From: Gammaproteobacteria bacterium
Lineage (GTDB): Bacteria; Pseudomonadota; Gammaproteobacteria; UBA4575
Assembly: GCA_965215055.1 (NCBI GenBank)
Contig: OZ244046.1
Location: forward strand, 1,391,202-1,455,201
Length of the DNA: 64,000 nucleotides
Direction of reading: 5' to 3'
Numbering within the stretch: the stretch's first letter is position 1; every line of letters starts with the position of its first letter. Positions 25,413 through 45,723 of this stretch are shown here, in pieces. Below the pieces are notes generated by a model. That model was not told where the DNA came from, ran no database searches, and saw only the letters and a program-made list of their open reading frames with translations. The position numbers and the translations under genes were made by a program.

Positions 25413-26117
25413 TTAACCCGCTGCTGCATTCGTCACTGCGCTTTTCTCAGGGTTTCCAATTCTGTCAAAGAAGTAGGCGCTGAGTATTCCCAGCACAACC
25501 CAGAAGATTGCATTAGTGGCAAGAGACGCGTAATGAAAGTAAGTTCTCAACTCTTCAGATGCCAAACCCCCGTGAACTTCGGGTTGTGGTGCGCCAAACA
25601 GGTGCGGCAGTATTATTAACGCTGTACCAATTATACCAAACAACTTGAGATCCGGTTGAAAAGCGATAATCCATAGCCCTGCTGCCGTAGCAATGACAGT
25701 TATCAACCACCACACTTGCCGTATTTCCAATCCCGCAGCAGCGTCACCGGGAAGCTCTGGCGGCAGACCAAAAGAGGGTGCAAGGTGAAATGCAGCAAAG
25801 CCTGCAAGTCCCCACAATATACCTCTGCGCCAGGTAACGGCTCCTCGAAGGGCATAACATGCCGTCAACAACAGACCGAATCCGATGCTGATGATCACGC
25901 TATTCATTGCGGTGAAAAAAGTTCGCTCGGCACCATCTGCAGGCGCCCATGGTTCTTCATTTTGATGCGTGTCACCTTCGTCGCTATCTGTAACTTCGAA
26001 GGCCTCCGCTTCAATGATCGAGGGGACAATTATAAAGTGTTGCATGCCCGCAAGCAGCAGGCCGGCAATTCCTCCTGCCAGAAGTGCGGCAAGAAATACC
26101 CTGTTAAAAGCTTTCAA
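25413..26117 (-). CDS. cbtA: cobalt transporter subunit CbtA
   Basis: Multi-TM protein with acidic/His loop, CbtA-like. Follows cbtB. Confidence 0.7.
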   Translation of the reverse strand: MKAFNRVFLAALLAGGIAGLLLAGMQHFIIVPSIIEAEAFEVTDSDEGDTHQNEEPWAPADGAERTFFTAMNSVIISIGFGLLLTACYALRGAVTWRRGILWGLAGFAAFHLAPSFGLPPELPGDAAAGLEIRQVWWLITVIATAAGLWIIAFQPDLKLFGIIGTALIILPHLFGAPQPEVHGGLASEELRTYFHYASLATNAIFWVVLGILSAYFFDRIGNPEKSAVTNAAAG

Positions 26118-26139: not shown

Positions 26140-26334
26140 CTAGTGACAGGGAAAAGCGAGCCCGTGTCGAATATCATGTGCTGCGTTGTGAAGAGCTTCT
26201 GGCCCGAAACCCACAGCGGCAATAATAAGCGCGCTTGTAAGAACTGCTGCCATGACGGCATATACTGTACCCCACGGCATAACTCCAGCTTGAATTTGAG
26301 CTAATAGACCTGTTGCTTCTTTAACTGTGCTCAT
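26140..26334 (-). CDS. cbtB: cobalt transporter subunit CbtB
   Basis: 64 aa, one TM, C-terminal His-rich HNAAHDIRHGLAFPCH typical of CbtB. Confidence 0.7.
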   Translation of the reverse strand: MSTVKEATGLLAQIQAGVMPWGTVYAVMAAVLTSALIIAAVGFGPEALHNAAHDIRHGLAFPCH

Positions 26335-26704: not shown

Positions 26705-27175
26705 TTAGAGCCCTAATTCCGTCAATCCGGGATGATCATCTGGACGCGGGCCTTGTTCCCACAGAAATTTCCGCTCAGACTCAAGAATAGGAACGTCGTT
26801 GATGCTGGCCTCACGCCGACGCATGAGTCCACGCTCATCAAATTCCCAGTTTTCATTGCCATGGGCACGGAACCAGTTACCCGAATCATCGCGCCACTCG
26901 TATTGAAAACGCACCGCGATGCGATCGTCATGGAACGTCCAGAGTTCTTTAATCAAGCGGTAGTCGAGTTCACGTACCCACTTGCGTTTAAGAAACGCGA
27001 CGATCTCCTCTCGCCCATGAAGAAATTCTGCACGATTACGCCAAAGACTGTCTTCAGTATAAGCAAGTGAAATTTTTTCCGGGTCACGTGAATTCCATGC
27101 ATTCTCTGCCATTCTGATTTTCTGTATGGCATCCTCTCGGGTAAACGGAGGCAGTGGCGGTCGTTCAGCAGACAT
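26705..27175 (-). CDS. DUF1348 family protein
   Basis: [52 protein letters not shown] matches the DUF1348 signature. Confidence 0.65.
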
Positions 27176-27615: not shown

Positions 27616-27939
27616 TTACGCACCGGTATGCCAAACCAGGGCATAGTCTGATTTATCCACCTTGTTTCGATTGTCGGTGATGATGATCTCAGCTCCATGT
27701 AATTTAGTGGCTTGATTGATATTGCTGCTGAAAATCAATTTTCGAAACTGTTCATAGTCAATGTGGCTGAAAACGTCTTCCTGGCGTTGAAGGAAGGAAT
27801 GCAGGTCCGGCAAGGTAAAACGCCAACACCTCTGCTCAACGCTGAAACACCGCTCCTGTTGCAGCTTCTGCAGTTGGGCCTTGTTTCTCTGGGCTACTCG
27901 TTCAAAAAAAGAAATCAGTGCTTGTTCAATGGCCTGCAT
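27616..27939 (-). CDS. hypothetical protein downstream of cynS
   Basis: ORF from track, co-directional with cynS/lysR. Confidence 0.35.
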   Translation of the reverse strand: MQAIEQALISFFERVAQRNKAQLQKLQQERCFSVEQRCWRFTLPDLHSFLQRQEDVFSHIDYEQFRKLIFSSNINQATKLHGAEIIITDNRNKVDKSDYALVWHTGA

Positions 27940-28011: not shown

Positions 28012-28452
28012 TCACCATGTAGCATAACGCAGGAATTTGCCGTTCAGGGTGATAACGACACGATCACCCTTTGGGTCCTCCTGTTTATCAATATCCATTG
28101 AAAAGTCAATGGCGCTCATAATTCCGTCACCAAACTTTTCATGGATGATTTCCTTGATAGTATCGCCATATACGCCGACAATTTCATATAGCCGATAGAC
28201 CACCGGGTCCTGCGGAACCGTCTTTTCCCATGATTTATGAGGATACTCTTGCAGTGCCGCACAGACTTCATCGTCGAGCTCAAGAATTTCACAAAGTCTT
28301 TTGGCCGCATCCGCAGGCATGCTATTCATTCCAAGGCATGCTGATGTGACCCATGTTGCACCCATATTCAACTTGTCTGCGATACCTTCCCAGGTTAATT
28401 TTCCAGCCTTCTTTTTCGCGATGATGAGATCAGTCATTTCCTGTTTAGTCAT
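28012..28452 (-). CDS. cynS: cyanate hydratase (cyanase)
   Basis: C-terminal [51 protein letters not shown] aligns with E. coli CynS ([51 protein letters not shown]). Confidence 0.9.
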   Translation of the reverse strand: [146 protein letters not shown]

Positions 28453-28489
28453 TATTGTGCCTCCTGTTGATATAGCGGTCTGTTTTGTT

Positions 28490-29497
28490 TCAAATTATTT
28501 TTTCCAAACTTGTAGTCCCAAGTTTTTGATCTTCTAACAGGGAACAAGGTTTCCGCCTGCGAATGAGTGCTTGCTGTAGCTTGTGAGTGGACCAATTTGA
28601 TGCCAGCCTTGAAAAGGCCAGACAAGCCGGACTCCTGTAACCATCTTTGCGGTAGACCAAAGTAATTGCTTTACAAGGCATTTCCGGGGTCAGTTCAATC
28701 GAGTGAAGTTGGCACTTCATTTGGATAATACTGCTTGGTAGCACGGTGGCAAGCGTGCCGAGCCGGACCATTTCTATGATTACACTAAGCGAGTTGGTTT
28801 CAACCGTAATATGCGGCATGATGCCTTGGTCAAGACAATACTGGTCTATATGGCGCCGCAATGCAAAATCAGTATTGAGTAGTGCTAACGACTCCTGTTC
28901 AAACTCCTGTACACCCATTTGCTTGTTCTGATATTTGGCATGAGGGTGGGCATTGCCGACTGCAATGTGGAGCATTTCTTCAAAAAGTATGTCCGTCTGG
29001 ACTTCTAGTGATCGCGTCTTGGCCGAAAACGGTTTGCTAAAAACAATACCGATGTCAACATGATCTTCGGCTACGGCTATTTCAATATCGTCTTGAGGCA
29101 TTTCCAATGTACTCAAACTGATGTTGGGATAGCTCGTATTAAAGTCTTCCAGCAATGGACAAGCCAAACAGTCAGTGATGGGAGTCCATCCCAGGCGAAG
29201 TGAGCCGCGACTCAGGTTTTGCACGTCGTGAATAGCGCGTGTCCCTGCCTCCAAGTCTCTACGGGCACAACGAGCATAGTGCAAATAAGCCTCGCCGGCA
29301 TCGGTCAATCGTACCGTACGTCCGGTTCGGTCCAGTAACGGTGTCTGCAACAGTTCTTCTAAATGTTTGATCTGCTGAGATAAGGTTGGCTGAGAAACGT
29401 GCAATGCTTTAGCGGCCCGGGTGTAGCTGCCGTATTCCGCAATAGCAATCAAGTATTGCAGGGCGCGGGGGAAAATACCTCGTTGATCCATAGTCAA
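28490..29497 (-). CDS. LysR-family transcriptional regulator (CynR-like position, divergent from scnBAC)
   Basis: N-terminal HTH LQYLIAIAEYGSYTRAAKALHVSQPTLSQQIKHLE. LysR substrate-binding domain. Confidence 0.9.
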   Translation of the reverse strand: MTMDQRGIFPRALQYLIAIAEYGSYTRAAKALHVSQPTLSQQIKHLEELLQTPLLDRTGRTVRLTDAGEAYLHYARCARRDLEAGTRAIHDVQNLSRGSLRLGWTPITDCLACPLLEDFNTSYPNISLSTLEMPQDDIEIAVAEDHVDIGIVFSKPFSAKTRSLEVQTDILFEEMLHIAVGNAHPHAKYQNKQMGVQEFEQESLALLNTDFALRRHIDQYCLDQGIMPHITVETNSLSVIIEMVRLGTLATVLPSSIIQMKCQLHSIELTPEMPCKAITLVYRKDGYRSPACLAFSRLASNWSTHKLQQALIRRRKPCSLLEDQKLGTTSLEKII

Positions 29498-29695
29498 CTC
29501 CTATGGGATTGATAATAACAAAGTCTTTGATTGCAAACTTATCTTTTTGATAGGCTGTTCATTAGACCAAGTGCATGCATCATAACAAATAGTGATAAAA
29601 ACTCTCAAATGCAGTAACTTGGGCTTGTGAAACGGTTTGTTTGACGGTATCTAATCATAAGTATAGTAAGAGGAGTTCATAACTATGTCGTCGCC
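29434..29695. repeat. copy B of the ~260-bp repeat: native lysR 5' end plus lysR-scnB intergenic promoter region plus first 11 nt of scnB
   Basis: See copy A. Contains candidate LysR-box dyad cTTATCtttttGATAGg at ~29538-29554. Confidence 0.85.
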
Positions 29696-30116
29696 TACCA
29701 GACAGAAAGTAATGAAGCATCTTGATATTGTCGGCCATTTACAGCCGGCTTTGCATCAACCCCAGCATGCACCATTTCCAGATGAGGTTGATAATGCCCA
29801 TTTCAGAGCCTATATGCGGACATCTCATGATGTTGGCGGTGAACCGGATGTGTCCATCCCTTGGCAGGAAAAAGAAGAAGAGCAGTGGGAACTGAATACC
29901 TACGTGACTTGCGAATGCCTGGCTTGGCGCGGTGTCTGGAACGCCGAGGAGAGGCGCCGTCGGCAGAATGTTGACTTGGGGCAGACTCAGTATCTGGGCT
30001 TACCCTATTACGGACGATGGCTGCTTTCCGCTGCGAGGATTATGGTCGATAAGCAGCACGTCACACTCACTGAGTTAATGAATAAGATTGATGAGGTCAA
30101 GAAACGCTATGAGTAG
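29685..30116 (+). CDS. scnB: thiocyanate hydrolase beta subunit (nitrile hydratase beta N-terminal-like)
   Basis: Gene order and sizes (143/118/232 aa) match scnB-scnA-scnC of Thiobacillus thioparus SCNase. NHase-beta-like sequence. Confidence 0.65.
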   Translation: MSSPTRQKVMKHLDIVGHLQPALHQPQHAPFPDEVDNAHFRAYMRTSHDVGGEPDVSIPWQEKEEEQWELNTYVTCECLAWRGVWNAEERRRRQNVDLGQTQYLGLPYYGRWLLSAARIMVDKQHVTLTELMNKIDEVKKRYE

Positions 30117-30462
30117 AAGTCACCACGCTGACAAAGCTACGGGGAAAGGCGACCCCCAGTGTTTTTTGGGTGAAGCGGGCCCACCCAAGTTCAAGGTGGG
30201 CGATCGTGTGCGGGTAAGAGATTTGCCAGATATTTTTTATACCCGCTGTCAGGTTTATACTCGCGGTGCGGTGGGAACAGTGGCAGTTGTAACTCATGAA
30301 AGCCCTGCCCCAGAGGACGAGGCTTGGGATAATGTTGACGCTCCCGAGTGGTTTTACATTGTGCGATTTCGGCAGAAAGACCTTTGGTCTGATTATCCCG
30401 ATGCTTACCCGAACGATACGCTACAGACTGAATTTTCCGAGCGTTGGCTAGAGTCGGCATAA
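30088..30462 (+). CDS. scnA: thiocyanate hydrolase alpha subunit (nitrile hydratase beta C-terminal SH3-like barrel). Probable start ~30109 (MSRSHH)
   Basis: KFKVGDRVRVRDLP...YTRCQVYTRGAVGTV NHase-beta C-terminal-type motif. Confidence 0.65.
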   Translation: MMRSRNAMSRSHHADKATGKGDPQCFLGEAGPPKFKVGDRVRVRDLPDIFYTRCQVYTRGAVGTVAVVTHESPAPEDEAWDNVDAPEWFYIVRFRQKDLWSDYPDAYPNDTLQTEFSERWLESA

Positions 30463-31208
30463 ATCTTGACCTAACTTTTAAGGATACAGTACAGAGCAGA
30501 GAGGAAAAACAAATGGCAGAGAAGCATAAAGCTGCACCCATGGTTGATGAGGTCAGCGATTTTGAGGTACTTGAAGTTGCCGTTCGTGAGCTTGCTATTG
30601 AAAAGGGTCTTTTCACCGCTGAGGATCATCGGCGATTTGCGGAGTTTGCGCACAGCATAGGCCCCTTACCGGCAGCACGTCTTGTCGCCAAGGCATGGTT
30701 AGACCCCGAGTTCAAGAAACTTGCCTTGGAGGATGGCTTTACGGCCAGCAAGGAAGTCGGTATTGACTGGCTGAATCCAACCGGGTTTGGCACACCAAGC
30801 GATTACTGCGACTTACGCGTTCTGGAAGACACGCCTGAAGTGAAGCACGTTGTCGTGTGTACGCTGTGCTCGTGTTACCCCAGGCCAATTCTTGGTCATT
30901 CACCGGAATGGTATCGAACGCCGAATTATCGCCGCCGCTTGGTTCGCTGGCCGCGGCAGGTACTTGCGGAATTTGGTCTTCAGCTTCCCGAGGACATAGA
31001 AATAAGAGTAGAAGACTCAAACCAGAAGTGCCGTTTCATGGTACTGCCGATGCGTCCAGAAGGCACTGATGGTTGGGACGAAGATCAGCTTGCTTCGATT
31101 GTAACCAGGGATTGTATGATTGGCATAGCGTTACCACACCCTGACAGAAAAGCGGACGATAAAAGGCCAGTGCATCCAGCGGTTAACCCGGTGGCGCACG
31201 ACCATTAA
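30444..31208 (+). CDS. scnC: thiocyanate hydrolase gamma subunit (nitrile hydratase alpha-type, Co/Fe-binding). Probable start ~30513 (MAEKHK)
   Basis: Metal-centre signature VCTLCSCYPRPILG (CxLCSC) of nitrile hydratase alpha / SCNase gamma. Confidence 0.8.
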   Translation: MARVGINLDLTFKDTVQSREEKQMAEKHKAAPMVDEVSDFEVLEVAVRELAIEKGLFTAEDHRRFAEFAHSIGPLPAARLVAKAWLDPEFKKLALEDGFTASKEVGIDWLNPTGFGTPSDYCDLRVLEDTPEVKHVVVCTLCSCYPRPILGHSPEWYRTPNYRRRLVRWPRQVLAEFGLQLPEDIEIRVEDSNQKCRFMVLPMRPEGTDGWDEDQLASIVTRDCMIGIALPHPDRKADDKRPVHPAVNPVAHDH

Positions 31209-31220
31209 ACGGCACAAGGC

Positions 31221-31607
31221 ATGGCTAACTTGGGTAAGAAAAGACTTTGGCACCAAGACGACTCATCAGACCCTGATCAGTCACCAATCTCGTTGCTTGA
31301 GAAAATCCGCAGCCAGGGAAAAGTCTGGGAAGATCTGGCTGACAAGTATGGCGTAACCAACCCTGATCCTCCTTGGAAGATCAGCATGCTTTCAATATGC
31401 GAGGCACTTGCGGCCAACGATTGTCTTGGCACGCTTGAGCGCCGTGCTGCCGAGGACGATCTTTCTGAGACTATTTACCGTGACGTTCCTCAACCTGAGC
31501 GGCAACTTTTGACTTTGGCACATACCATGATTCAGCAAGGCCTACTGGATGAAGGCGAGCTCACTCGTCGAATAGAGCAAGTCAGTAGGCGTCTCAACAG
31601 TGTCTGA
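31221..31607 (+). CDS. hypothetical protein in the slot of a nitrile-hydratase/SCNase accessory (activator) protein
   Basis: Position directly after scnC. No firm motif. Confidence 0.35.
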   Translation: MANLGKKRLWHQDDSSDPDQSPISLLEKIRSQGKVWEDLADKYGVTNPDPPWKISMLSICEALAANDCLGTLERRAAEDDLSETIYRDVPQPERQLLTLAHTMIQQGLLDEGELTRRIEQVSRRLNSV

Positions 31608-31699
31608 AAGCAAGTACCAGCTATTCATGGGAAAGGAAAGGAGCCATGATGATTTTTGAATATGATGGTGCACTTACTTTTTTACAAGGAAATTGATCA

Positions 31700-32515
31700 A
31701 TGGCAGACCGCACCGGTGTACACATCAAGATTGAGGACCTTGCTCACCGCTATACTCCGAAAAGCCCGATTACCTTTGATGAGGTTAATATAGAGGCGCA
31801 GCCGGGAGATTCGCTCGTCATCATCGGTCGTTCCGGTTGTGGTAAATCGACTCTTCTCCACGTGTTGGCTGGCCTGCTGCACCCCACCAAGGGCACGGTC
31901 CACATTGGTGGTGCACAGGTTCAAAAACCGTCCTCACGTTGGGTGATGATGTTCCAGGCCCCTCATCTTTTTCCCTGGATGACAGTTTCACATAATGTTG
32001 GCATCGGCCTCCATTTTGCTCATTGGCCCAGGAAAAAAATGCAGGAGCGCGTTACCGAGGTGCTCGGCCTTGTTGCGCTTGAAGACTATGCCCGCAGCAA
32101 CGTGCAGGATCTTTCTGGTGGACAGCAGCAGCGCGTCGCGCTTGCCCGCTCGCTGGTGATGGAACCCGAATTACTTCTTTTGGATGAACCCTTTTCGGCA
32201 CTTGACGCCTTTACCCGTGCGACCTTGCAGAAAGACGTTCGTTCCATAGTGAAACAACTGGGTATAAACATGGTGATGGTTACCCACGACATCGATGAGG
32301 CGGTGTTAATGGCCGACCGTGCATTGGTTATGGCTGGAGAACCCGGCAGGATCGTTCACGATTTCAGCGTTGATCTTGCCGACCCGCGTGAACGTCAGGA
32401 CCCGGCTGTTCAGTCCATGCGTTCACGCCTGATGCAGATTTTCCATGATGCGGCGCAGCCGTTGGAAAGTGCCGACACGGAAGCTGTTGGTGAACTACAC
32501 CCCAGTCCTGGCTGA
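31700..32515 (+). CDS. ABC transporter ATP-binding protein (NitT/TauT family; nitrate/cyanate-type)
   Basis: Walker A GRSGCGKST, ABC signature LSGGQQQRVALAR, Walker B LLLDEPF. Confidence 0.85.
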   Translation: MADRTGVHIKIEDLAHRYTPKSPITFDEVNIEAQPGDSLVIIGRSGCGKSTLLHVLAGLLHPTKGTVHIGGAQVQKPSSRWVMMFQAPHLFPWMTVSHNVGIGLHFAHWPRKKMQERVTEVLGLVALEDYARSNVQDLSGGQQQRVALARSLVMEPELLLLDEPFSALDAFTRATLQKDVRSIVKQLGINMVMVTHDIDEAVLMADRALVMAGEPGRIVHDFSVDLADPRERQDPAVQSMRSRLMQIFHDAAQPLESADTEAVGELHPSPG

Positions 32516-32577
32516 TCGACATTCAGTATTCGTGAGCATATACTTAAACTTAAATTAACCAAACGAGGAAGCCCGAC

Positions 32578-33858
32578 ATGAAAAAAGTTTATCAAAGACA
32601 TGGTGACGGGATACGAGAAGACTCAGATCTCGTCTTGGAGTATGACCCGCTTTTCAAAGGCGTATTAGGTACAGGTATCAACCGGCGAGATTTTCTTGCA
32701 ATGGGCGGCCTTGCTGCGTTAAGTGGTGCGATGCCATTTCCCACCTTTGCGAAAAAGAAGTGGGACCCGGTAGTTAAAATCTGTTACATCCCCATAACTG
32801 ACGCGGCTGCACTGCTTGTTGCGCATGAATTGGGTTTATTCAAGGCGGAAGGCATTGATTCCGTTCGCCCAACGCTCATCCGAGGCTGGTCGCCGCTGGT
32901 TGAAGCATTTGCAGCACATCGCTTCAATCTCACGCACATGCTGATTCCGATTCCGGTCTGGATGCGCTATAACAACAAATTCCCTATAAAAATTACGGCG
33001 TGGGATCATACCAACGGCTCCGCCGTTCTTGTTGGCAAGGATAGTGGTATCAATACTCCCGAGGATTTCGGAGGTAAGCAGTTTGCAGTGCCGTACTGGT
33101 ATTCGATCCATAACATTGTTTCACAAAGAATAATGAAGGCAGCGGGGATTACTCCGGTGATTCGGCCGCAGAGTGCAAAGCTTGCTCCGAACGAGTGCAA
33201 CTACCTCGTTTTACCACCTCCTGCCATGCCGCCTGCACTTGCAGCAAGAACGATTGACGGTTATTGCGTGGCTGAACCTTTCAATGCTTTGGGTGAACTC
33301 AAGGCAGGAGGCAAGGTGCTGCGCTTTACCGGTGATGTTTGGAAGGGTCATCCCTGCTGTGTTGTAGTAATGCATGAAGATGACGCCATGGACCCTGATC
33401 GTGCAGCTTGGGCACAAGGGATACATAATGCTGTAATTGCTGCGCAAATTCATCTTGCCGAGAATAGAGAGGCGATGTCAGAAATGCTTTCTCGTGAAGG
33501 CAAAAGGTACTTGCCATTCCCGAAAGAAGTAATCAAGCGGGCGATGATGTTCTACGATCCAGCTTATTACAACAATCCTGCGGCGATCCAGCATCCGGAG
33601 TGGGGTCAGGATCGCATCAACTTCCAGGGTTGGCCATATCCATCTGCCACCAGGCTTGTTACAAACGACCTGAAGGATACGGTACTTACTGGTAATGCCA
33701 AGTTCCTTAAAGATCTTACCCCTGATCACGTTGCAGGTGACCTGGTCAACTATAACTACGTCAAGAACTCGCTGGAAGCCAATCCCAAGTGGCGAGACGA
33801 TGCCAGCGTTCCTAAGACAGGTGATCCCTATGTACGCACAGAGGTGTTTGAACTTTGA
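32578..33858 (+). CDS. ABC transporter periplasmic substrate-binding protein (NrtA/CynA-like) with Tat signal
   Basis: Twin-arginine motif NRRDFLAMGGLAALSGA. NrtA-like fold signature. Confidence 0.8.
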   Translation: MKKVYQRHGDGIREDSDLVLEYDPLFKGVLGTGINRRDFLAMGGLAALSGAMPFPTFAKKKWDPVVKICYIPITDAAALLVAHELGLFKAEGIDSVRPTLIRGWSPLVEAFAAHRFNLTHMLIPIPVWMRYNNKFPIKITAWDHTNGSAVLVGKDSGINTPEDFGGKQFAVPYWYSIHNIVSQRIMKAAGITPVIRPQSAKLAPNECNYLVLPPPAMPPALAARTIDGYCVAEPFNALGELKAGGKVLRFTGDVWKGHPCCVVVMHEDDAMDPDRAAWAQGIHNAVIAAQIHLAENREAMSEMLSREGKRYLPFPKEVIKRAMMFYDPAYYNNPAAIQHPEWGQDRINFQGWPYPSATRLVTNDLKDTVLTGNAKFLKDLTPDHVAGDLVNYNYVKNSLEANPKWRDDASVPKTGDPYVRTEVFEL

Positions 33859-34679
33859 GCAACGGCATTGCACTTTCTGAGGAAAACCAATCTTCCCGCG
33901 TCCTCAAGTCAGCGGGAAAACGTTTGTTCAATTGGGCGGCCGGCTTGGCCATCCTGTTTGCTCTTTGGTGGGTCGGCGGCTATCTTATCTATATCAACCC
34001 TTATACGACGGATTTTGCTGGTTTCCGTCCCATCCCCACCTTCATGGCGTTCCCAGAGCTTTGGATGGATGGCACGATTCCGAATGCTGTTATGTCAAGT
34101 GGTTACCGATTGGGTGTTGGGCTTCTTATTGCCATTGGATGTGGCATACCAATCGGTATTCTCCTTGGCCGCAGCAAGACGTTTCGCGAGCTGAGCAATT
34201 CTCCGTTTCAGTTGTTGCGCATGATCAGTCCGCTCTCTTGGGAGCCGATTGCAGTAATTGTGTTTGTTACCTGGAACCAGTCGATCATTTTTCTTATTGC
34301 AGTAGCTTCAGTCTGGCCGGTAGTGTTTGCGACGGCTGCCGGCTTGGCCAAAGTAGACCCATCCTGGTTCAAGGTAGCGCGCAATCTTGGTGCCAAGCGT
34401 TGGCACATGTTGACGCAGATTATTCTGCCAGCAATTACTTTTGACATTATGACGGGTATTCGCCTTGCTCTTGGCGTTGCGTGGATCGTCCTCGTACCGG
34501 CGGAATTTCTTGGAGTAACCTCTGGGCTTGGCTATTCCATCAATGATGCGCGAGAAACACTCTCCTATAGTCACCTCACTGCAATGGTGCTCGTTATTGG
34601 GGTCATTGGCTATATACTTGACAGCACCTGTGCGTTTGCCATCAAGCGTTTCAGTTGGCACCATGCAGCGGAACACTAG
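33855..34679 (+). CDS. ABC transporter permease (NitT/TauT family)
   Basis: 6-TM permease, overlaps the SBP gene by 4 nt. Confidence 0.85.
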   Translation: MSNGIALSEENQSSRVLKSAGKRLFNWAAGLAILFALWWVGGYLIYINPYTTDFAGFRPIPTFMAFPELWMDGTIPNAVMSSGYRLGVGLLIAIGCGIPIGILLGRSKTFRELSNSPFQLLRMISPLSWEPIAVIVFVTWNQSIIFLIAVASVWPVVFATAAGLAKVDPSWFKVARNLGAKRWHMLTQIILPAITFDIMTGIRLALGVAWIVLVPAEFLGVTSGLGYSINDARETLSYSHLTAMVLVIGVIGYILDSTCAFAIKRFSWHHAAEH

Positions 34680-34731
34680 CCGGTTGCATCCCGTACAAAA
34701 TCGAGCTGCACACTAGGCAAGGGGAAACGAA

Positions 34732-34962
34732 GTGAGTGAAAGCAAAGTTATTGATGCGCGCAATACTTTTTGTCCTGGACCGCTTATGGAACTCATTACC
34801 TATATGAAACAAGCCAATGTGGGAGATACGCTCGAACTGCTATCAACCGATCAGGGTACAGCTTCCGATGTTCCGGAGTGGGTTGACAAAGTTGGGCACG
34901 AGATGATCAGCAGTGAAAAAGTCGACGAAGTCTGGCATATTAAGGTTCGCAAGACTAAATAG
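34732..34962 (+). CDS. tusA: TusA-like sulfurtransferase
   Basis: 76 aa with CPGP motif (DARNTFCPGPLMEL). Confidence 0.8.
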   Translation: MSESKVIDARNTFCPGPLMELITYMKQANVGDTLELLSTDQGTASDVPEWVDKVGHEMISSEKVDEVWHIKVRKTK

Positions 34963-35006
34963 CATGCAGTTGGGGAATGGTAAGTATGTTGAGTAGGAGA
35001 ATATAG

Positions 35007-36140
35007 ATGAGAATCCTGGTAGTTGGTGGTGGTACGGGCGGTACCATTGTAGCCAATAATCTTGCGCGTCGGTTGGTCAGAGAAACTCGCTCCGGCAAAG
35101 TTTCAATCACCATGCTGTCGGCTTCTGACCAGCATATATATCAGCCTGGCCTGTTTTACGTCGCGTTTGGACAGATGACTCCGGATCAACTATATCGCGA
35201 TCAAGCAAGCTTGCTTGAGTCCAATATCGAATTTCATGTAGACCCGGTCGAGCAGTTCCAGCTCGATCAAAATCAGGTAAGAACTGAAAGTGGCAATACT
35301 TATGAATATGACACTCTTGTGATAGCAACCGGCTCGCGCATGGTGCCCGAGGAAATTCCCGGGTTGGCAGATGCAGCCGAGTTCTTCTACACTGAGAAAA
35401 GCGCGGTGAAAATGTTCAAACGTTTGCGTGAATTTCAAGGTGGCAAAGTTGCCATTATTGTCGGCGTGCCGCATAAGTGTCCGATAGCCCCGGTTGAGCT
35501 CACGTTTGCCTTGCACGATTATTTCAAAACACGTGGCATCCGCGACAAAGTCGAAATTAAATACCACTATCCGATTGGCCGTATTCACAGCATTGAGAAC
35601 GTTGCCAAGTGGGCAACACCAGAGTTTGAGCGTATCGGTATTGAGTACGAGACGCTGTTCAATGTCAAGGAAGTGGATGCGAAAAACAAGATAGTGAAGA
35701 GTGAAGAAGGTACGGAAACCTCCTATGACCTGCTCATTTCCATACCTGCGCATCGTGGTATGGAAGTGATTGAGAAGGATCAGCTTGGCCAAGGCGGATG
35801 GATCCCGACTGATCGTCATCAACTCACCATGGATGGTCATGACAACGTCTACATAGTAGGTGATACTACCAACCTGCCAGTCAGTAAAACGGGTTCAGCA
35901 GCGCACTTTGAGGCAGAAGTGATTGCCGAGAACATTGCCTCAATTATCAAAATCGGCACCCCGGTACGTGAATACGATGGCAAGGTCTACTGCTTTATTG
36001 AAACCGGCCATGACAGTGCCACCTACGCCATGTTCAACTACATTAATCCTCCTGACCTGAAGCAGCCAAACAAGTCAATGCACTGGTTTAAGATGTCTTA
36101 TAACCAGATGTACTGGACCAGCGTACGCGGCTTGCTTTAA
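35007..36140 (+). CDS. FAD-dependent pyridine-nucleotide-disulfide oxidoreductase, sulfide:quinone oxidoreductase-like
   Basis: N-terminal FAD-binding ILVVGGGTGG. Conserved Cys in VPHKCPIAPVE and C-terminal VYCFIETGHD resembling SQR redox cysteines. Confidence 0.65.
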   Translation: MRILVVGGGTGGTIVANNLARRLVRETRSGKVSITMLSASDQHIYQPGLFYVAFGQMTPDQLYRDQASLLESNIEFHVDPVEQFQLDQNQVRTESGNTYEYDTLVIATGSRMVPEEIPGLADAAEFFYTEKSAVKMFKRLREFQGGKVAIIVGVPHKCPIAPVELTFALHDYFKTRGIRDKVEIKYHYPIGRIHSIENVAKWATPEFERIGIEYETLFNVKEVDAKNKIVKSEEGTETSYDLLISIPAHRGMEVIEKDQLGQGGWIPTDRHQLTMDGHDNVYIVGDTTNLPVSKTGSAAHFEAEVIAENIASIIKIGTPVREYDGKVYCFIETGHDSATYAMFNYINPPDLKQPNKSMHWFKMSYNQMYWTSVRGLL

Positions 36141-36152
36141 GGAGGCCATGTC

Positions 36153-36593
36153 ATGACCGCTCAGGCAGAGACAGAGACGCCTCCCGCCGGAACAGCTAGT
36201 ACCGGCGATCTGCAGCAGCTCACCGAGCTCGCGACACTTGTCACCTCCGCTCGGGATGCAATGTCGGACGAGATTGTCACCCGGTTAGCCTCGGCAGTGA
36301 GCGAGGGCATTACCTTGCTCGATCGCCTCACGCGCAATGAGGGGCTGATGCGTTTGATTCGGGCACTTGATCGCCCGGAAAATCAGGACCTTCTGATTAG
36401 CTTGTCCAATGCCATCACTGCAATGAGTCGAGATCTCGCAACTACTTCTTCGCCAGCCAAAGGCGGTATTGGAGGGATATTACAACTGGCTCGCGAGCCA
36501 GCCACGCAGGAGGGGGTTCGATTGCTTTCGCTATTCAGCCAGCATCTGAGAGAGAGCGTTCGTGAACTGCATCAGCACGACGCTAATAGCTGA
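36153..36593 (+). CDS. DUF1641 domain protein (frequent partner of SQR-like/NADH-dehydrogenase-like flavoproteins)
   Basis: Helical 146-aa protein immediately after the flavoprotein gene. Confidence 0.55.
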   Translation: MTAQAETETPPAGTASTGDLQQLTELATLVTSARDAMSDEIVTRLASAVSEGITLLDRLTRNEGLMRLIRALDRPENQDLLISLSNAITAMSRDLATTSSPAKGGIGGILQLAREPATQEGVRLLSLFSQHLRESVRELHQHDANS

Positions 36594-36615
36594 AATTTAA
36601 AATTTAACAGCCAAG

Positions 36616-36650
36616 AAGGGGCGCGGGAGAGAGGTGCCCCTTTGGCTTTT
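36616..36650. terminator. bidirectional rho-independent terminator between convergent DUF1641 and OMP genes
   Basis: aaggggc-gcgggagagaggt-gcccctt hairpin followed by tggctttt. Confidence 0.5.
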
Positions 36651-36684: not shown

Positions 36685-38217
36685 CTATTTGAACCGATAC
36701 TGAAGCATCGCCCAGAACTTCTGGGTGTCATTGCTGAACTCATCGGCGTCGTAACTGGTGTATTTTACTAACCCAAGCCATTTCTTTGTAAACGGCTTGG
36801 CAAACAACATGCTCCACTCATCCCCGTAGTCTTTCATTCTGACTCCATTTACGCTCTTCTTGTCAGCTTCATATTTGTGATACTGGAAGACCAGCTTGGA
36901 CGGGCCGATCAATCCTTTCACTACATATGTAACACTGGTGTCCTTGAGGCCTCGGGCGGGAGTATTGGACCCACCAGGGCCGCCTACGAACTTGTCAGCC
37001 CAACCATTGAAGGCGTGTACCGTAGAAAGGGGGGTTTGCACAGCATTCACGCCGTTGCCTTCCAGAACTTCGTGACCTACCTTCAAAACCATCGGTTTGC
37101 CAAGTGCCGTGAAGGCACCGCCAAGCTCGATATTGTAGTAGTCGTTGTCATCCAGAGTGTCAAGGGCGTCATCCTCGGGGTCCTGGTTTGCCCATTCCAG
37201 CTCGGAAAGCAGGGTTAAATTATCGTTTAACTTGTGTTTGCCCAAAAATCGCACGCCCCAGGTATCGGAATCAAAAGGAAATTGAAGGCTACCTACGGCC
37301 ATTCCCATTGGTTGCCCTGTTACAGGGTTTATATTGGGGGGAGTAAATACAGGTACTGTTCCACCTTCACCTTCTTTAGGCGGGGTTCGCGAATTGTCTT
37401 TAAAGTCCAGTATGTAACGGTAGGCGGTCAGCTTTCCAAAGGGAAGTTTGTAAGAGATGTTAATGAGGTGGGAGTCATCCATATCATATTCATTGAATAC
37501 TGAATCCTTACCGAACAGTCGATTTACCTTATCAATATAGGAGTAAGAGATACTGAGGTTCTTGATTGATGAGTTGTCGATTCTGAAGGCATCAAAGGAC
37601 TGGTTATTATTGCGCCAGATAACGTCGCCTACCCAGCGATGATTATCATAGATGATGAGCTGTCTTCCCAACTTGAATGAAGTGTTGCCACTGCAGGGAC
37701 CTGGTGCCATCGGGCAACCGCCGGTTGGACTGCGCCAGCCGATGTAGAATTCTTCAACTTCTTCAAAATTGTTATCTGGAATAATGGCATGTCCCTCTGC
37801 GACGCGACTTGCACCCAGAAGATTCGGTGGAGCAAGCTTTAAGTCTTCGTCAAGGTTCAATGCATTATCACTGCCTAATCGCGTTGCTGCTTCTACCGAA
37901 CCACGGAAGTAAAAGCCATGATAGCGAGCTGTGGTATAGCCCAGTACGGCACGCAGGCTTAGCAGATCGGCGTCATCGGCGGCATTCAAGGGAGACGTTG
38001 GGGGGAGATCTTCGTCATTCACATCTTCATAGCGCATACGCAGCCAAACGTCGGGCTTGCCGCTCATCATTGCGTGTTGAATTTCAGTTGTATTTGGTAA
38101 AAACTTGCCGCGGTGGACGTTGGGAACATCGGGTAAGCCTGCTGCCCAGGCACTTTGTGCGATCATAAAAATGATAGCAGTGGTTATGAGACACGAAAGC
38201 GACTTGAAATTGATCAT
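36685..38217 (-). CDS. outer-membrane beta-barrel protein / putative porin (signal peptide)
   Basis: Signal peptide MINFKSLSCLITTAIIFMIAQSAWA. Alternating amphipathic beta-strand pattern. Aromatic C-terminus. Confidence 0.5.
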   Translation of the reverse strand: MINFKSLSCLITTAIIFMIAQSAWAAGLPDVPNVHRGKFLPNTTEIQHAMMSGKPDVWLRMRYEDVNDEDLPPTSPLNAADDADLLSLRAVLGYTTARYHGFYFRGSVEAATRLGSDNALNLDEDLKLAPPNLLGASRVAEGHAIIPDNNFEEVEEFYIGWRSPTGGCPMAPGPCSGNTSFKLGRQLIIYDNHRWVGDVIWRNNNQSFDAFRIDNSSIKNLSISYSYIDKVNRLFGKDSVFNEYDMDDSHLINISYKLPFGKLTAYRYILDFKDNSRTPPKEGEGGTVPVFTPPNINPVTGQPMGMAVGSLQFPFDSDTWGVRFLGKHKLNDNLTLLSELEWANQDPEDDALDTLDDNDYYNIELGGAFTALGKPMVLKVGHEVLEGNGVNAVQTPLSTVHAFNGWADKFVGGPGGSNTPARGLKDTSVTYVVKGLIGPSKLVFQYHKYEADKKSVNGVRMKDYGDEWSMLFAKPFTKKWLGLVKYTSYDADEFSNDTQKFWAMLQYRFK

Positions 38218-38443: not shown

Positions 38444-38776
38444 CTAGGCGACGCTGCCAAATCCTTTATCTACTGCGCCTGCGGGAACCTGCAGACCGGC
38501 GAGCCTGCATCCCTGCGCCACAGGGCCGCCCGGAAACAGACTATACAGGTATTTCATGCCGCCTTTATGGTGAAACTTCTCATCCAGTGCATCGTGAAGC
38601 TCACGCATGTTGATATGACTGGCTTCATGGTGCGAGTAATACTCCTGCAATGCTTGCAATACTTCCAGGTGGTCATCACCAAGTGTCAATCCCTCCGCTG
38701 CTGCTGCGTCTCTTGCACTATCTTTACTCCAGTCTTCAGGCACGTAAGAACCTGTTTGCTCACTTGCACTGGACAC
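38444..38776 (-). CDS. TusE/DsrC-family sulfur-relay-like protein lacking the C-terminal cysteine
   Basis: MKYLYSLFPGGPVAQGCRLAGLQVP aligns with E. coli TusE [25 protein letters not shown]. Ends GFGSVA instead of ..KCI. Confidence 0.7.
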   Translation of the reverse strand: MSSASEQTGSYVPEDWSKDSARDAAAAEGLTLGDDHLEVLQALQEYYSHHEASHINMRELHDALDEKFHHKGGMKYLYSLFPGGPVAQGCRLAGLQVPAGAVDKGFGSVA

Positions 38777-38929: not shown

Positions 38930-39727
38930 TCATCGATCACGCTTGAAATAGTATCCGCAGATCCATTTTCTCCGTACGAGTTCAGGAAGAATTTTTTGCA
39001 GTTGGGCATCAATATTTTCCCGGGTCGCCAAACTCTCGCATTCGCCCAAAGATAAGCCATTTTGAATTTTATCTATCACCCACCAGCAAGCGTGGTCTAT
39101 CTTGTGAACGACTGGTTTAAAATTATCTCTGGCGATACATAAATACTGGGGACCGGAAATCGCATCGATTTCCTGGGATTTATCTTGTTCACGGTTAGCG
39201 CGCCAGATTTCGTGGATAGGGTAGCTCGACCTCAGTACGGACAGGGAGGCACTTGGCCTGAAACATATATATTGATAATGATCGTGATGTAACGTGGGCA
39301 GGGAATTGAAATCAAATAGCGGATCGTCTTTTGCGTAATAGGCTTGCTCATAAGCCCACTCGAGTTTTGCCATATCAGGCAGATATTGATAATCAATCAA
39401 CTCTGCGTGATCTTCGATCCAGTCTTGTAAAAACAGTGGGAATGACTCCCCGTACAGGTTCAAATTTTGACTTGTCGCCGGGTATTTATAAAAATATTCA
39501 TTTGCGATTTGTTTGAAGTACCTTTTTCCCAGGATCTTTTTACAGCATGGATAGCTTTGTGCCAGGGCGTCAATGTGGGCGGTGCGTGCCGTATTACGGT
39601 AAATATCAAGTCTCTCTTCCGGTGTGAGTTTTTTATTGGTGGAAGATAATAGGGCGCAGACAGAACTGGTTTTGCGGTTTCTCAAGCTGTCCCAGAACTG
39701 CTGTTGCAAGCTGGTCAACTGGTTCAT
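38930..39727 (-). CDS. bufC: DUF2063 protein (BufC-like partner of the MNIO enzyme)
   Basis: DUF2063-like N-terminus. Translationally coupled (4-nt overlap) to the DUF692 gene. Confidence 0.7.
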   Translation of the reverse strand: MNQLTSLQQQFWDSLRNRKTSSVCALLSSTNKKLTPEERLDIYRNTARTAHIDALAQSYPCCKKILGKRYFKQIANEYFYKYPATSQNLNLYGESFPLFLQDWIEDHAELIDYQYLPDMAKLEWAYEQAYYAKDDPLFDFNSLPTLHHDHYQYICFRPSASLSVLRSSYPIHEIWRANREQDKSQEIDAISGPQYLCIARDNFKPVVHKIDHACWWVIDKIQNGLSLGECESLATRENIDAQLQKILPELVRRKWICGYYFKRDR

Positions 39728-40629
39728 GTCCTGTTACCCAAGCCGGGTTGGGCACTCTTTTTTATTTGCTGTGAGCCATGTGGTTTTACCGATTGCCTGT
39801 ACCATCGTGCCTTTTCTGCTTCTTGCAGCAGAGTTGAGAAAGCCGGTAGATCGTTATCCCACTCGATTATCGTCGGGGCCGAACAGCCATGTTTCAAGAT
39901 CTCCTGGTACAGCTTCCATACCGGCTCAGATACCTCGTGGTTGTGCGCATCGAGCAGATAGGCGCCTTTATGTTCATACCCGGCCAAGTGTATTTCGGCA
40001 ACCAGATAAAGCGGAATATTCTTTACATACTCCTGCGCATCAATCTGATTGTTATATTGACTGACGTAGATGTTGTTCAAGTCAAGCAGAATCTTACTGC
40101 TTGATTTTTCTGCAACGGCAGTCAAGAATTCCCATTCATGCAACGTTGAGCATTCAAAGCTCAAATAGCTGGAGACATTCTCGACTACTAGAGTTGTTTC
40201 CAGATAATCCTGTATTTTTTTAATGCGGCGGCTGACGTGGTTTACTACTTCTTCCGTATAAGGTAGCGGCAGCAGGTCATTTGCATACTGTTTCTTGAAA
40301 GAAGTCCAACATAAATGATCCGAGATACACAAAGGCTCAAGCTCGTCAGCAAGTTTTTTTATTTTACTCAAATAGGTGAAATCAATCGGGTCCGTTCCAC
40401 CTAACGACATGCCAACGCAATGCAGTGTTACCGGATAATCACGTCGTATGGCATAAGCCTGTTGTCTGGCATAACCACCATCGGCCAAATGATTGTCTGC
40501 GAGAAGCTCGAAAAAATCCACACGGGGCTTTGTCGCCAGAATTTCCTTTACATGGGGTGAGCGAAGCCCTACTCCAATCTCTGGTGCAGGGGGCTTCGCG
40601 TTACTGGAAGAGGGAACATTTCCCATCAC
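39724..40629 (-). CDS. bufB: DUF692 / MNIO (multinuclear non-heme iron oxidase, MbnB/BufB-like) RiPP-modifying enzyme
   Basis: TIM-barrel DUF692 signature (EIGVGLR..DFFEL..LHCVGMSLGG..ISDHLCW). Confidence 0.8.
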   Translation of the reverse strand: MMGNVPSSSNAKPPAPEIGVGLRSPHVKEILATKPRVDFFELLADNHLADGGYARQQAYAIRRDYPVTLHCVGMSLGGTDPIDFTYLSKIKKLADELEPLCISDHLCWTSFKKQYANDLLPLPYTEEVVNHVSRRIKKIQDYLETTLVVENVSSYLSFECSTLHEWEFLTAVAEKSSSKILLDLNNIYVSQYNNQIDAQEYVKNIPLYLVAEIHLAGYEHKGAYLLDAHNHEVSEPVWKLYQEILKHGCSAPTIIEWDNDLPAFSTLLQEAEKARWYRQSVKPHGSQQIKKSAQPGLGNRT

Positions 40630-40644
40630 TGGTTGTTGTTTTGG

Positions 40645-40932
40645 TTATTTAGCGGGCTTGACTGCTTTGACAACGCCTCCTGCAATTTTCGTACAGGTCC
40701 CTTCTGGCACATAAATCCATTCAGTAGCCATATTATCTTCTTTAGCCTGACCGGCACATTTATGTGAGCCGTCCAAGGCACCGCAGTCATTTTTCCCTGC
40801 TTTGGAAACTCCGGCACATTTTTCCCAATTTGCAGGCGCATCAGGCACTGCCATGGCATTTTGTACAGCCATGCTGGAGCCGATAGCTAAAATTCCAGCC
40901 ATAGTAGATTTTATTACGGTTCGTCTATTCAT
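40645..40932 (-). CDS. bufA: DUF2282 secreted Cys-containing precursor peptide (bufferin BufA1-like)
   Basis: Sec signal peptide then core with 4 Cys ([26 protein letters not shown]...[10 protein letters not shown]). Sits immediately upstream of the MNIO gene. Confidence 0.7.
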
Positions 40933-41174: not shown

Positions 41175-42137
41175 ATGGTACTGAAGCGGACAGGGCATAT
41201 TCCGTCAACACGGGACCGGTTTCGGGGCTGCCTGCTGGGTCTTGCCACAGGTGACGCCCTGGGCGTTACGCTGGAGTTCAAGAGCCCTGGCACGTTTGAA
41301 CCGATCAATGAAATGCTCGGCGGCGGCTCGTTCAATCTGGAACCAGGCCAATGGACAGATGACACATCAATGGCCCTGTGCCTTGCCACGAGTCTGGTTG
41401 AATGCGGATTCGACGTGCGAGATCAGATGGAGCGTTACGTGCAGTGGTATAGCAACGGTTACCTATCCTCGACCGGCGAGTGTTTCGATATTGGCAACGC
41501 GACTCGTGATGCCCTCGTTCGATTCAGGGATACTGGTGAGCCGTATGCAGGTTCAACGGAACCCGATACAGCAGGGAACGGCTCACTGATGCGTCTTGCT
41601 CCGGTTCCGATGTTCTACGCCCACGATACTACAAAGGCCATTGAACAGAGTGGGGAAAGTTCGAGAACAACACATGGTGCTGATGAAGCAGTAGATGCCT
41701 GTCGCTACTACGGCGGTCTTCTGGTTGCTGCCTTGCAGGGTGTGACAAAGAAGGCACTTCTTTCCTCCCACTTTTGTCCGGTTCAGGGTTTTTGGCAGCG
41801 TCATGCGTTAGCGAAGAACGTTGCTACCGTTGCCGCAGGCTCCTTTATTCACAATGAGCCGCCAGAAATTGAAGGCACAGGCTACGTCGTCAAGGCTTTA
41901 GAAGCAGCACTATGGGCATTTAGCCGATCTTCCAACTTTCGCGACGGGGCCCTGCTCGCCGTCAATCTGGGAAACGATGCCGACACCACCGGGGCCATCT
42001 ACGGTCAACTTGCCGGAGCCCATTACGGAGTAGGTGCCATCCCGCTCGAATGGCGAAAAAAGTTGACAATGGGCGCGGAGATCGAACTACTGGCCGACCA
42101 ACTGCTTGAACGTTCCATGTCACTCCCGGTAACGTGA
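41175..42137 (+). CDS. ADP-ribosylglycohydrolase family protein (DraG-like)
   Basis: N-terminal RFRGCLLGLATGDALGVTLEF and C-terminal GNDADTTGAIYGQLAGAHYG metal-binding motifs. Confidence 0.85.
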   Translation: MVLKRTGHIPSTRDRFRGCLLGLATGDALGVTLEFKSPGTFEPINEMLGGGSFNLEPGQWTDDTSMALCLATSLVECGFDVRDQMERYVQWYSNGYLSSTGECFDIGNATRDALVRFRDTGEPYAGSTEPDTAGNGSLMRLAPVPMFYAHDTTKAIEQSGESSRTTHGADEAVDACRYYGGLLVAALQGVTKKALLSSHFCPVQGFWQRHALAKNVATVAAGSFIHNEPPEIEGTGYVVKALEAALWAFSRSSNFRDGALLAVNLGNDADTTGAIYGQLAGAHYGVGAIPLEWRKKLTMGAEIELLADQLLERSMSLPVT

Positions 42138-42147
42138 ATCAAACAGC

Positions 42148-43446: not shown

Positions 43447-43457
43447 GGTTCCGTATT

Positions 43458-43895: not shown

Positions 43896-43906
43896 GTCGT
43901 AAAAAT

Positions 43907-44590: not shown

Positions 44591-44653
44591 TGCAGTGAAA
44601 AGCGGGTGACGGTAATCAGGGGGTCGAAAATTGAAACGCGAACTTCAGAAGGA

Positions 44654-45016: not shown

Positions 45017-45025
45017 TGTTCTTTC

Positions 45026-45703: not shown

Positions 45704-45723
45704 GTGTATTTATAATTCCCGAT

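Follow-up and report, generated by a model that had tools for sequence, protein, structure and literature searches.

What does a bacterium do with a gene cluster in which a cyanase, a thiocyanate hydrolase, an anion importer and sulfur-handling proteins lie side by side? The question is raised by a stretch of 64,000 nucleotides, hereafter the window, from a gammaproteobacterium of the GTDB lineage UBA4575 (assembly GCA_965215055.1, contig OZ244046.1, positions 1,391,202 to 1,455,201 of the forward strand). A first-pass annotation, made from the letters alone, had read positions 28012-36593 of this window as a locus for thiocyanate and cyanate whose sulfur is finally oxidised with quinone. We consider it likely, with a probability of about 0.8, that the locus serves the use of thiocyanate by way of the carbonyl sulfide (COS) pathway. 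Homology, family models and published precedent sustain the core of the earlier annotation, namely a thiocyanate hydrolase (SCNase, EC 3.5.5.8) locus joined to a cyanase, an importer of the NitT/TauT family and sulfur-handling proteins. The open reading frames (ORFs) of the window were scanned against Pfam, NCBIfam and the PDB sequences, and Rfam was used for RNAs.

By every available sequence criterion, scnBAC encodes a thiocyanate hydrolase of the CxLCSC type, as had been proposed. The three predicted subunits align close to their full length with the crystallised enzyme of Thiobacillus thioparus: ScnB with 2DD4_B (E 3.8e-63, aligned residues 1-141) and, nearly end to end, ScnA with 2DD4_A (E 5.2e-47) and ScnC with 2DD4_C (E 2.4e-118). 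Three consecutive ORFs carry, one each, the Pfam domains NHase_beta_N, NHase_beta_C and NHase_alpha, which is the split architecture of SCNase. ScnC scores 395.3 bits against the equivalog model of the thiocyanate hydrolase gamma subunit (TIGR03887, cutoff 291.45), whereas its 211.8 bits against the nitrile hydratase alpha model (TIGR01323) stay under the cutoff of 249.85. Likewise, no true nitrile hydratase in the PDB is matched better than E 6e-62, as against 2e-118 for SCNase. The T. thioparus gamma subunit has the identical cobalt motif VCTLCSC (aligned stretch vvctlcscyprpilg). The Y-P-R that follows the motif is also kept, including the substrate-pocket residue Arg136, the position at which the variant in PDB 3VYG has a tryptophan. 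The enzyme of T. thioparus THI115 (PDB 2DD4, 2DD5, 2DXB, 2DXC, 2ZZD) thus shares with the window enzyme the three-subunit build, the VCTLCSC motif and Arg136 of gamma, but the N- and C-termini of the gamma and beta subunits differ.

The gene after scnC encodes a protein of 128 residues. It shares 59% identity with the product of the ORF that follows scnC in T. thioparus DSM 505, and has a marginal NHase_beta_N match (22.3 bits, gathering score 21.5). By this likeness it would fit the P15K activator, a role that PMC5458468 attributes to Kataoka et al. 2006.

The twelve-gene inventory of the first-pass annotation was recovered in full by ORF listing and family scans, each gene at its coordinates and in its assigned family (Table 1). 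The arrangement had to be redrawn. The genes had been described as running in one direction with 4-nt overlaps; however, cynS and cynR lie on the minus strand and diverge from scnB over a spacer of 187 nt. The single 4-nt case is the start of the permease gene (TTGA), which overlaps the stop of the gene for the periplasmic substrate-binding protein (SBP), while scnB and scnA overlap by 8 nt and the other junctions are gaps of 12-92 nt. Together with a terminal hairpin, these short junctions are consistent with transcription as one unit. The hairpin is the probable end of this unit, which would run from scnB to the gene of the last, 146-residue protein; it is recognised by its form alone and is statistically unexceptional. 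Promoter and terminator scans gave no signal above shuffled expectation, and we claim neither a promoter nor a LysR box. Two starts deserve mention: the scnA ORF opens at 30088, with the likely ATG start at 30109 and an alternative at 30091 (the gene calls are 117 and 123 residues long on identical contigs), and the scnC ORF opens at 30444, ahead of the called start at 30513.

The operon type itself is known. For T. thioparus DSM 505, Berben et al. 2017 described scnABC, a hypothetical protein, four NitT/TauT ATP-binding cassette (ABC) subunits, a DsrE/F-like peroxiredoxin, a sulfurtransferase related to TusA, a sulfide:quinone oxidoreductase (SQR) plus a terminal hypothetical protein, with a cyanase and a cobalt transporter subunit upstream (PMC5328954). 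The same gene set was read alike for DSM 505 and Thioalkalivibrio thiocyanodenitrificans (PMC5328954, Fig. 3). Berben et al. 2017 cite Kantor et al. 2015 for the operon (PMC5328954), and PMC5458468, with the same citation, calls the arrangement a conserved operon. The DSM 505 operon has the gene order of the window, and the window proteins are 53-80% identical to its products. In contrast to DSM 505 with its four ABC subunits, the window has neither a DsrE/peroxiredoxin-like gene nor a second permease. Its cynS lies on the opposite strand, behind the gene of a CynR-type regulator, its cobalt system is CbtAB, located upstream and also on that strand, and a gene for a putative outer-membrane protein is convergent at the 3′ end of the cluster. 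The window copy is therefore a trimmed member of the published operon type. The two missing genes were sought by tblastn with the versions of DSM 505 (locus L080) and of a second related locus (L015), and none was found in the window, where 52 nt separate the permease gene from tusA. Many relatives carry two permeases, and the DsrE-like gene stands directly before tusA in almost every other locus that has the tusA-SQR block.

How general is this gene set? A scan for ScnC over one genome per species yielded at least 510 loci encoding a relative. The best 80 of these were analysed with up to 10 kb of flank on each side, by tblastn with all window proteins, and gene counts refer here to the 52 loci with full flanks, which come from gamma-, beta- and alphaproteobacteria. 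Thiobacillus, Thiodiazotropha, Thiogranum, Thiohalophilus, Sulfuritalea and many metagenome-assembled genomes (MAGs) are among the hosts. The P15K-like activator and the three ABC genes are each found in 51 loci, the CynR-like regulator in 48 (divergent and less than 600 nt from scnB in 33), cynS in 33 and cbtAB, within 10 kb of scnC, in 29. TusA, SQR and the small partner protein that follows it behave as an all-or-none triad: complete in 40 loci, partial in none and absent from 12. The order scnBAC, activator, NitT/TauT ABC genes, TusA, SQR and small protein recurs in 40 of the 52, T. thioparus DSM 505 included. The clustering is not due to chance: dozens of genomes, spread over several proteobacterial classes, have the same genes together.

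The triad is the part of the locus where sulfur would meet the quinone pool. Its first member, TusA, matches the Pfam family at E 1.6e-19 and has the cysteine of the CPGP motif (Cys14). The second is a flavoprotein which starts directly with the Rossmann motif for flavin adenine dinucleotide (FAD), MRILVVGGGTGG, and has no signal peptide. Its PDB ranking is headed by human SQOR (4.5e-37), Acidianus SQR (5e-28) and Aquifex SQR (3e-16); flavocytochrome c sulfide dehydrogenases come next and NDH-2 enzymes only afterwards. In the alignment with human SQOR, Cys158 (PHKCPIAP) and Cys329 (VYCFIETG) fall on the catalytic cysteines. The best NCBIfam model is NF049943 (E 3.4e-97; 326 bits, below the cutoff of 525), which is built for the selenocysteine subtype of the type III SQR; a model of the cysteine form is not among the listed matches. 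The orthologues are mostly exactly 377 residues long, and longer calls reflect upstream start codons chosen by the ORF-calling script.

An SQR next to TusA is a known association, since Methylacidiphilum fumariolicum has a sulfide-induced operon of type III SQR, TusA and DsrE2 (MFUM_v2_0219-0221; PMC10205796). The type III enzymes of Methylacidiphilum and Caldivirga have two redox cysteines like the window SQR, and the Methylacidiphilum enzyme also shares the TusA adjacency. In contrast to them, the window-type SQR ends in a single, near-invariant C-terminal helix and is always followed by a DUF1641-family gene, which is not mentioned for the two others; its score also stays under the model cutoff. 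The tail (...HWFK..YN.MYW..VRGLL) shows at least 90% conservation among the 53 SQR orthologues of the loci, all of which end in it, and its helical hydrophobic moment is low. The second cysteine is followed by Phe330, and the C-terminal helix contains Phe361; in position they correspond to the quinone-site residues F337 and F362 of Caldivirga maquilingensis SqrC, as summarised in PMC9666304. The Caldivirga enzyme is reported to be membrane-bound via its own C-terminal helices (PMC9666304). The idea that the window SQR lacks a membrane anchor is weakened by the one C-terminal helix that it retains, with a quinone-site phenylalanine.

The third member was labelled DUF1641 in the first-pass annotation, and this label comes from the orthologues of the protein rather than from the window copy, which has no Pfam DUF1641 match even at E ≤ 10. 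PF07849 is matched by 11 of 41 partner orthologues (best E 4e-8). Three of them, checked singly, score 26-33 bits over a C-terminal segment and pass the gathering score of 21; this segment aligns with residues ~102-135 of the window protein. Close relatives are named ‘YjgD (DUF1641 family)’ or ‘DUF1641 domain-containing’ by JGI and UniRef. Comparisons by hhalign with two annotated DUF1641 proteins were weak (probability 0.3% and 21%), with the expected motif aligned; the weak match to the Halopiger DUF1641 protein had E 1e-3 at the probability of 21%. An AlphaFold monomer built with 46 homologues is an all-helical, poor model (pLDDT 61, pTM 0.29), and its Foldseek comparison with the PDB returned noise only. 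The gene starts 12 nt after the SQR stop, a spacing that is typical in related loci, and the pair co-occurs in all 40 triad-bearing loci.

The triad also occurs by itself. A tblastn search of plasmid records with the SQR turned up such neighbourhoods that have no thiocyanate hydrolase. Halopiger encodes together, without the hydrolase, TusA, an FAD oxidoreductase with ~40% identity to the window SQR, and a protein of the DUF1641 family. Halobaculum, also without it, has TusA, the oxidoreductase and DUF1641, the oxidoreductase-DUF1641 pair being tandemly duplicated. Haloarcula marismortui has TusA, the oxidoreductase and a small hypothetical protein, and Burkholderia thailandensis the oxidoreductase-DUF1641 pair; the hydrolase is absent from both. 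Ralstonia solanacearum, where it is absent too, has an unannotated yet recognisable DUF1641-like ORF after the oxidoreductase. From this recurrence without thiocyanate hydrolase in haloarchaea, Burkholderia and Ralstonia, TusA, SQR and DUF1641 appear to be an ancient module that is independent of thiocyanate metabolism and was recruited by the scn operon. The all-or-none triad and its presence in haloarchaea without SCNase go beyond the literature that could be searched. The triads or pairs lie at L089 2754-6929, L084 3715-5732, L088 2708-4508, L085 3956-5609 and L087 2923-4655. The Burkholderia and Ralstonia pairs are on megaplasmids and the haloarchaeal sets on plasmids, and several of these records have genes for a metallo-beta-lactamase-fold hydrolase, DsrE and thioredoxin nearby.

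What could the partner do? Proteins of the DUF1641 family are known as quinone conduits. Menaquinone binding, like the formate:menadione activity of ForC, requires ForE (PMC8808070). Ncp (YjlC) forms with the NDH-2 enzyme Ndh a 4:4 tube complex that sequesters menaquinone, and HucM plays the equivalent part in the Huc hydrogenase (PMC13524794). As in the window, these scaffolds are small helical DUF1641 proteins encoded directly downstream of a cofactor-bearing oxidoreductase that has to reach membrane quinone, and the window SQR and the NDH-2 of Ndh-Ncp belong to a common flavoprotein superfamily with two dinucleotide-binding domains. The partner enzymes differ, being an NDH-2, a formate dehydrogenase and a hydrogenase in the known scaffolds and an SQR in the window. 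The hosts differ as well: the window host is proteobacterial, whereas Ndh-Ncp was reported as exclusive to Bacillota in a study where SQRs served as an outgroup only (PMC13524794). Likeness of the window partner to the solved Ncp, ForE and HucM was detectable neither by a profile of the partner family run against the PDB sequences, which found none of the three, nor by fold search. No paper linking DUF1641 to SQR was found in the literature that could be searched.

With DUF1641 proteins known as quinone conduits, an SQR-DUF1641 complex is a testable hypothesis. By analogy with Ndh-Ncp, ForCE and Huc, the partner might hand membrane quinone to the flavoprotein within such a complex. We hold this proposal to be tentative and, on balance, doubtful, because the Caldivirga enzyme is reported to bind the membrane with its own helices, the C-terminal helix is retained in the window SQR, the partner is divergent and the structural tests failed.

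The importer had been called NrtABC-type, which is right at the level of the NitT/TauT family and too specific beyond it, since no component reaches the cutoffs of the nitrate-transporter models (ntrB 127.7 bits against 209; ntrCD 197.7 bits against 291.8). The nearest NCBIfam models of ATPase and permease are SaoA/SaoP and those for nitrate, taurine and sulfonate transport, all below their cutoffs; for the ATPase these are SaoA, ntrCD, TauB and SsuB. The SBP belongs to the NMT1_2 family (Pfam E 3e-35) and has a twin-arginine leader (RRDFLAMGG). Its nearest models are SsuA, SaoX and taurine, equally under cutoff (best SsuA_fam, 63.5 bits against 163.5). In the PDB its distant matches are an uncharacterised Staphylococcus aureus protein (3UN6, 1e-17) and NrtA (8e-11), with a further match of about 5e-15 to the NrtA-like regulatory domains of CmpC/NrtC. 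In view of the near-perfect synteny with the hydrolase, we infer that thiocyanate is the substrate, and the SBP is the candidate thiocyanate binder.

The step from COS to H2S is not encoded in the locus. The first-pass annotation had expected a carbonic anhydrase or COS hydrolase between SCNase and SQR and had seen none; neither motif scan nor tblastn found one in the window. The zinc site of beta-carbonic anhydrases (CxDxR...HxxCG) is missing from all window ORFs and from the sequence within 10 kb of scnC in 83 loci. With Escherichia coli Can as tblastn query, the window and the 83 loci gave nothing below E 0.29. The description of the T. thioparus DSM 505 operon likewise lists no COS hydrolase (PMC5328954). 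As the gene is missing from all related loci, its absence here is the rule and not a gap, and the COS-to-H2S step must be encoded elsewhere in the genome. The ‘complete route’ from SCN− to quinone that had been implied is therefore not complete within the locus.

Regulation and cyanate removal resemble the cyn system of E. coli. The LysR regulator scores 347 bits against the CynR equivalog model NF008416 (cutoff 277) and the cyanase 171 bits against TIGR00673 (cutoff 113), so that both pass the models of their E. coli counterparts. The E. coli system has in addition the carbonic anhydrase gene cynT and cynX, which the window cluster lacks, and in the window CynR faces a thiocyanate hydrolase operon. 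The CynR-type protein is likely the regulator of the locus and, as it faces that operon, its effector may be thiocyanate. The conserved protein of 107 residues encoded downstream of cynR-cynS accompanies the regulator even where cynS is missing (L010, L011) and is present in 27 of the 52 loci.

Beyond these genes, cbtA and cbtB encode a cobalt transporter which probably supplies metal to the cobalt-dependent hydrolase. Rfam reported no cobalamin riboswitch in the whole window, a tRNA being its sole match. In many relatives, cbtAB is part of the scn operon, placed between the genes for the permease and the DsrE-like protein.

Taken together, these assignments, which for all genes rest on homology and synteny, can be arranged in a pathway. 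For uptake, cobalt supply with maturation, and hydrolysis the homology is strong. SCN− would cross the outer membrane, perhaps by way of the neighbouring 510-residue putative outer-membrane protein, would be bound by the Tat-exported NMT1_2-type protein and imported by the NitT/TauT-family ABC transporter. In the cytoplasm, the cobalt enzyme ScnBAC, matured by the P15K-like protein and supplied with cobalt by CbtAB, would convert SCN− to COS and ammonia, following the SCNase reaction SCN− + 2 H2O -> COS + NH3 + OH−. The subsequent steps, like the transporter substrate and the inducer of the regulator, we infer. COS would be turned into H2S and CO2 by a hydrolase, probably an enzyme of beta-carbonic-anhydrase type, with its gene outside the locus. 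The type III-like SQR would then oxidise H2S on its two cysteines and deliver the electrons to quinone, while the sulfane sulfur would be handed to TusA for further oxidation in the cytoplasm. The DUF1641-family partner would be an obligatory subunit of the SQR, most likely giving the flavoprotein access to membrane quinone. The divergent CynR-type regulator would control the operon and sense cyanate or thiocyanate, and the cyanase would remove cyanate.

Several observations weigh against this pathway. Its COS step depends on genes outside the locus, the SBP is only distantly related to any characterised binder, and without a DsrE-like protein the sulfur relay of the window may be incomplete. 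In addition, the closest relatives by ScnC (L001-L009, 89-90% identity) lack the whole block of TusA, SQR and partner, so sulfide handling is dispensable for the hydrolase. More broadly, L001-L009, L025, L054, L057 and L060 are small MAG chromosomes (1.6-2.8 Mb) of Gammaproteobacteria, closest by ScnC, which keep hydrolase, importer, cynR-cynS and the putative outer-membrane protein and have no genes for TusA, SQR or the DUF1641-like protein. This distribution suggests that the sulfur module was lost stepwise in this gammaproteobacterial lineage.

The alternative that survives best assigns the locus mainly to nitrogen acquisition and detoxification, with TusA, SQR and partner disposing of toxic sulfide instead of yielding energy. 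We grant it a substantial minority share of the probability. The regulator is a CynR orthologue with which the cyanase is co-transcribed, 12 of the 52 loci, nearest relatives included, keep hydrolase and importer without the triad, the DsrE-like relay protein is absent from the window, and the type III SQR of Methylacidiphilum has been read as a detoxification enzyme (PMC10205796). However, the triad is under selection in 40 of the 52 loci, with the sulfur oxidisers Thiobacillus, Thiodiazotropha, Thiogranum and Thiohalophilus among the hosts, and electrons that reach quinone conserve energy under either label. The difference from the COS-pathway cluster proposed above is one of physiological emphasis, not of mechanism.

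It is unlikely, in our estimate, that the ABC transporter imports another anion (cyanate, nitrate, bicarbonate or a sulfonate) while thiocyanate enters by a different path. The adjoining cyanase, the sub-cutoff proximity to named models (nitrate, taurine, sulfonate, SaoA/SaoP, SsuA, SaoX) and the structural relatives of the SBP, whose nearest characterised ones are NrtA and CmpC domains, would be in line with such a substrate. Yet no transporter part passes any substrate-specific model, the importer genes come after scnBAC and the activator gene in 51 of the 52 loci, with or without cynS, and a cytoplasmic hydrolase needs an anion importer.

Could the sulfur be taken from COS directly, with no free H2S, by the triad or by another neighbour such as the DUF1348 protein? 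The lack of a carbonic-anhydrase-type gene within 10 kb of scnC in 83 loci would be explained in this way, and conserved neighbours without assigned function are at hand. We rate this as very improbable, as such chemistry has no precedent, the DUF1348 protein is found in merely 10 of the 52 loci, and the triad of haloarchaea without thiocyanate hydrolase points to a general module for sulfide or sulfane sulfur. In T. thioparus THI115, moreover, a separate COS hydrolase of the beta-carbonic-anhydrase family is reported (Ogawa et al. 2013). Slightly less probable still is that organic nitriles are the substrate and ScnBAC a nitrile hydratase, an enzyme type with which it shares the superfamily and a VCTLCSC cobalt motif common among the cobalt-dependent members: the gamma subunit fails the nitrile hydratase cutoff (212 bits against 250) and passes that of SCNase (395 against 291), the PDB ranking (6e-62 against 2e-118), the split beta subunit and the anion-pocket Arg136 are those of SCNase, and the ORF listing of the window has no amidase gene nearby.

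The genes around the cluster are included in Table 1. The DUF1348 protein is a peripheral neighbour, and Thiobacillus is represented among the ten loci that have it near scn (L066, L067, L071). The 510-residue protein has a signal peptide and is a possible entry channel for anions in the outer membrane. A PDB search gave no relative of it; it adjoins the cluster in 17 of the 52 loci, and in L014 and L022 its gene comes after that of the partner in the same orientation. Further downstream, a DsrC/TusE-family protein keeps an internal cysteine (QGCRLAGL) and lacks the penultimate C-terminal cysteine typical of DsrC; its gene is near scn in no other locus.

Table 1 Features of the thiocyanate locus and its flanks (positions in the window)
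Feature	Position	Strand	Evidence
cbtA, putative cobalt transporter subunit	25413..26117	-	Pfam CbtA, E 1.9e-45
cbtB, small cobalt transporter subunit	26140..26334	-	Pfam CbtB, E 3.8e-12
DUF1348/SnoaL-like (NTF2-fold) protein	26705..27175	-	Pfam DUF1348, E 1e-66
Conserved 107-aa protein	27616..27939	-	Family searches without significant match
cynS, cyanase	28012..28452	-	TIGR00673, Pfam Cyanate_lyase and CYNS_N
CynR-type LysR regulator	28490..29497	-	NF008416 CynR equivalog
Divergent intergenic control region	29498..29684		Ribosome-binding site AAGAGGAG upstream of scnB, read from sequence
scnB, beta subunit (N-terminal half of NHase beta)	29685..30116	+	2DD4_B, NHase_beta_N
scnA, alpha subunit (C-terminal half of NHase beta)	30109..30462	+	2DD4_A, NHase_beta_C
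scnC, gamma (catalytic) subunit with VCTLCSC cobalt site	30513..31208	+	2DD4_C, TIGR03887
P15K-like maturation/activator protein, 128 aa	31221..31607	+	Likeness to T. thioparus DSM 505 ORF
ABC transporter ATPase, NitT/TauT family	31700..32515	+	Pfam ABC_tran
Periplasmic substrate-binding protein, 426 aa	32578..33858	+	Pfam NMT1_2
ABC transporter permease	33855..34679	+	Pfam BPD_transp_1
TusA-family sulfur carrier	34732..34962	+	Pfam TusA
Type III-like SQR flavoprotein, 377 aa	35007..36140	+	Human SQOR match, NCBIfam type III SQR model
146-aa partner, divergent DUF1641-family member	36153..36593	+	Orthologues match PF07849
Terminator-like hairpin, then UUUUCU	36609..36647	+	Fold energy -23.4 kcal/mol, z-score only -1.3
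510-aa putative outer-membrane protein	36685..38217	-	Alginate_exp 23 bits, under gathering score
DsrC/TusE-family protein	38444-38776	-	Pfam DsrC, E 4e-20
Bufferin-type cluster of a ribosomally synthesised and post-translationally modified peptide: BufA1/DUF2282 precursor, MbnB/TglH/ChrH-family (DUF692) enzyme, HvfC/DUF2063	38930-40932	-	Pfam
ADP-ribosylglycohydrolase, CCP/MauG di-haem peroxidase, YtkA-domain protein; cytochrome c oxidase gene set (COX3, COX4_pro, others)	41175-50514		Precomputed Pfam, identical contig

As a thiocyanate locus, the window adds little, the operon type having been published and being present here in a trimmed form in a small-genome, metagenome-assembled bacterium. 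With at least 510 loci in species-representative genomes, the hydrolase is much commoner than one would expect from the small number of thiocyanate oxidisers in culture. The missing COS hydrolase is to be looked for at other sites of the genome rather than regarded as anomalous. The protein left as ‘hypothetical’ at the end of the published operon appears to be a DUF1641-family member and is inseparable from its SQR, a pairing that bears on the way in which a sulfide oxidase of the cytoplasm gains access to the quinone pool. If the proposed complex exists, it would add a fourth class to the quinone reductases scaffolded by DUF1641 proteins, and the first for sulfide. It would also be the first flavoprotein pairing of the Ndh-Ncp style outside Bacillota, with TusA as its dedicated acceptor of sulfane sulfur.

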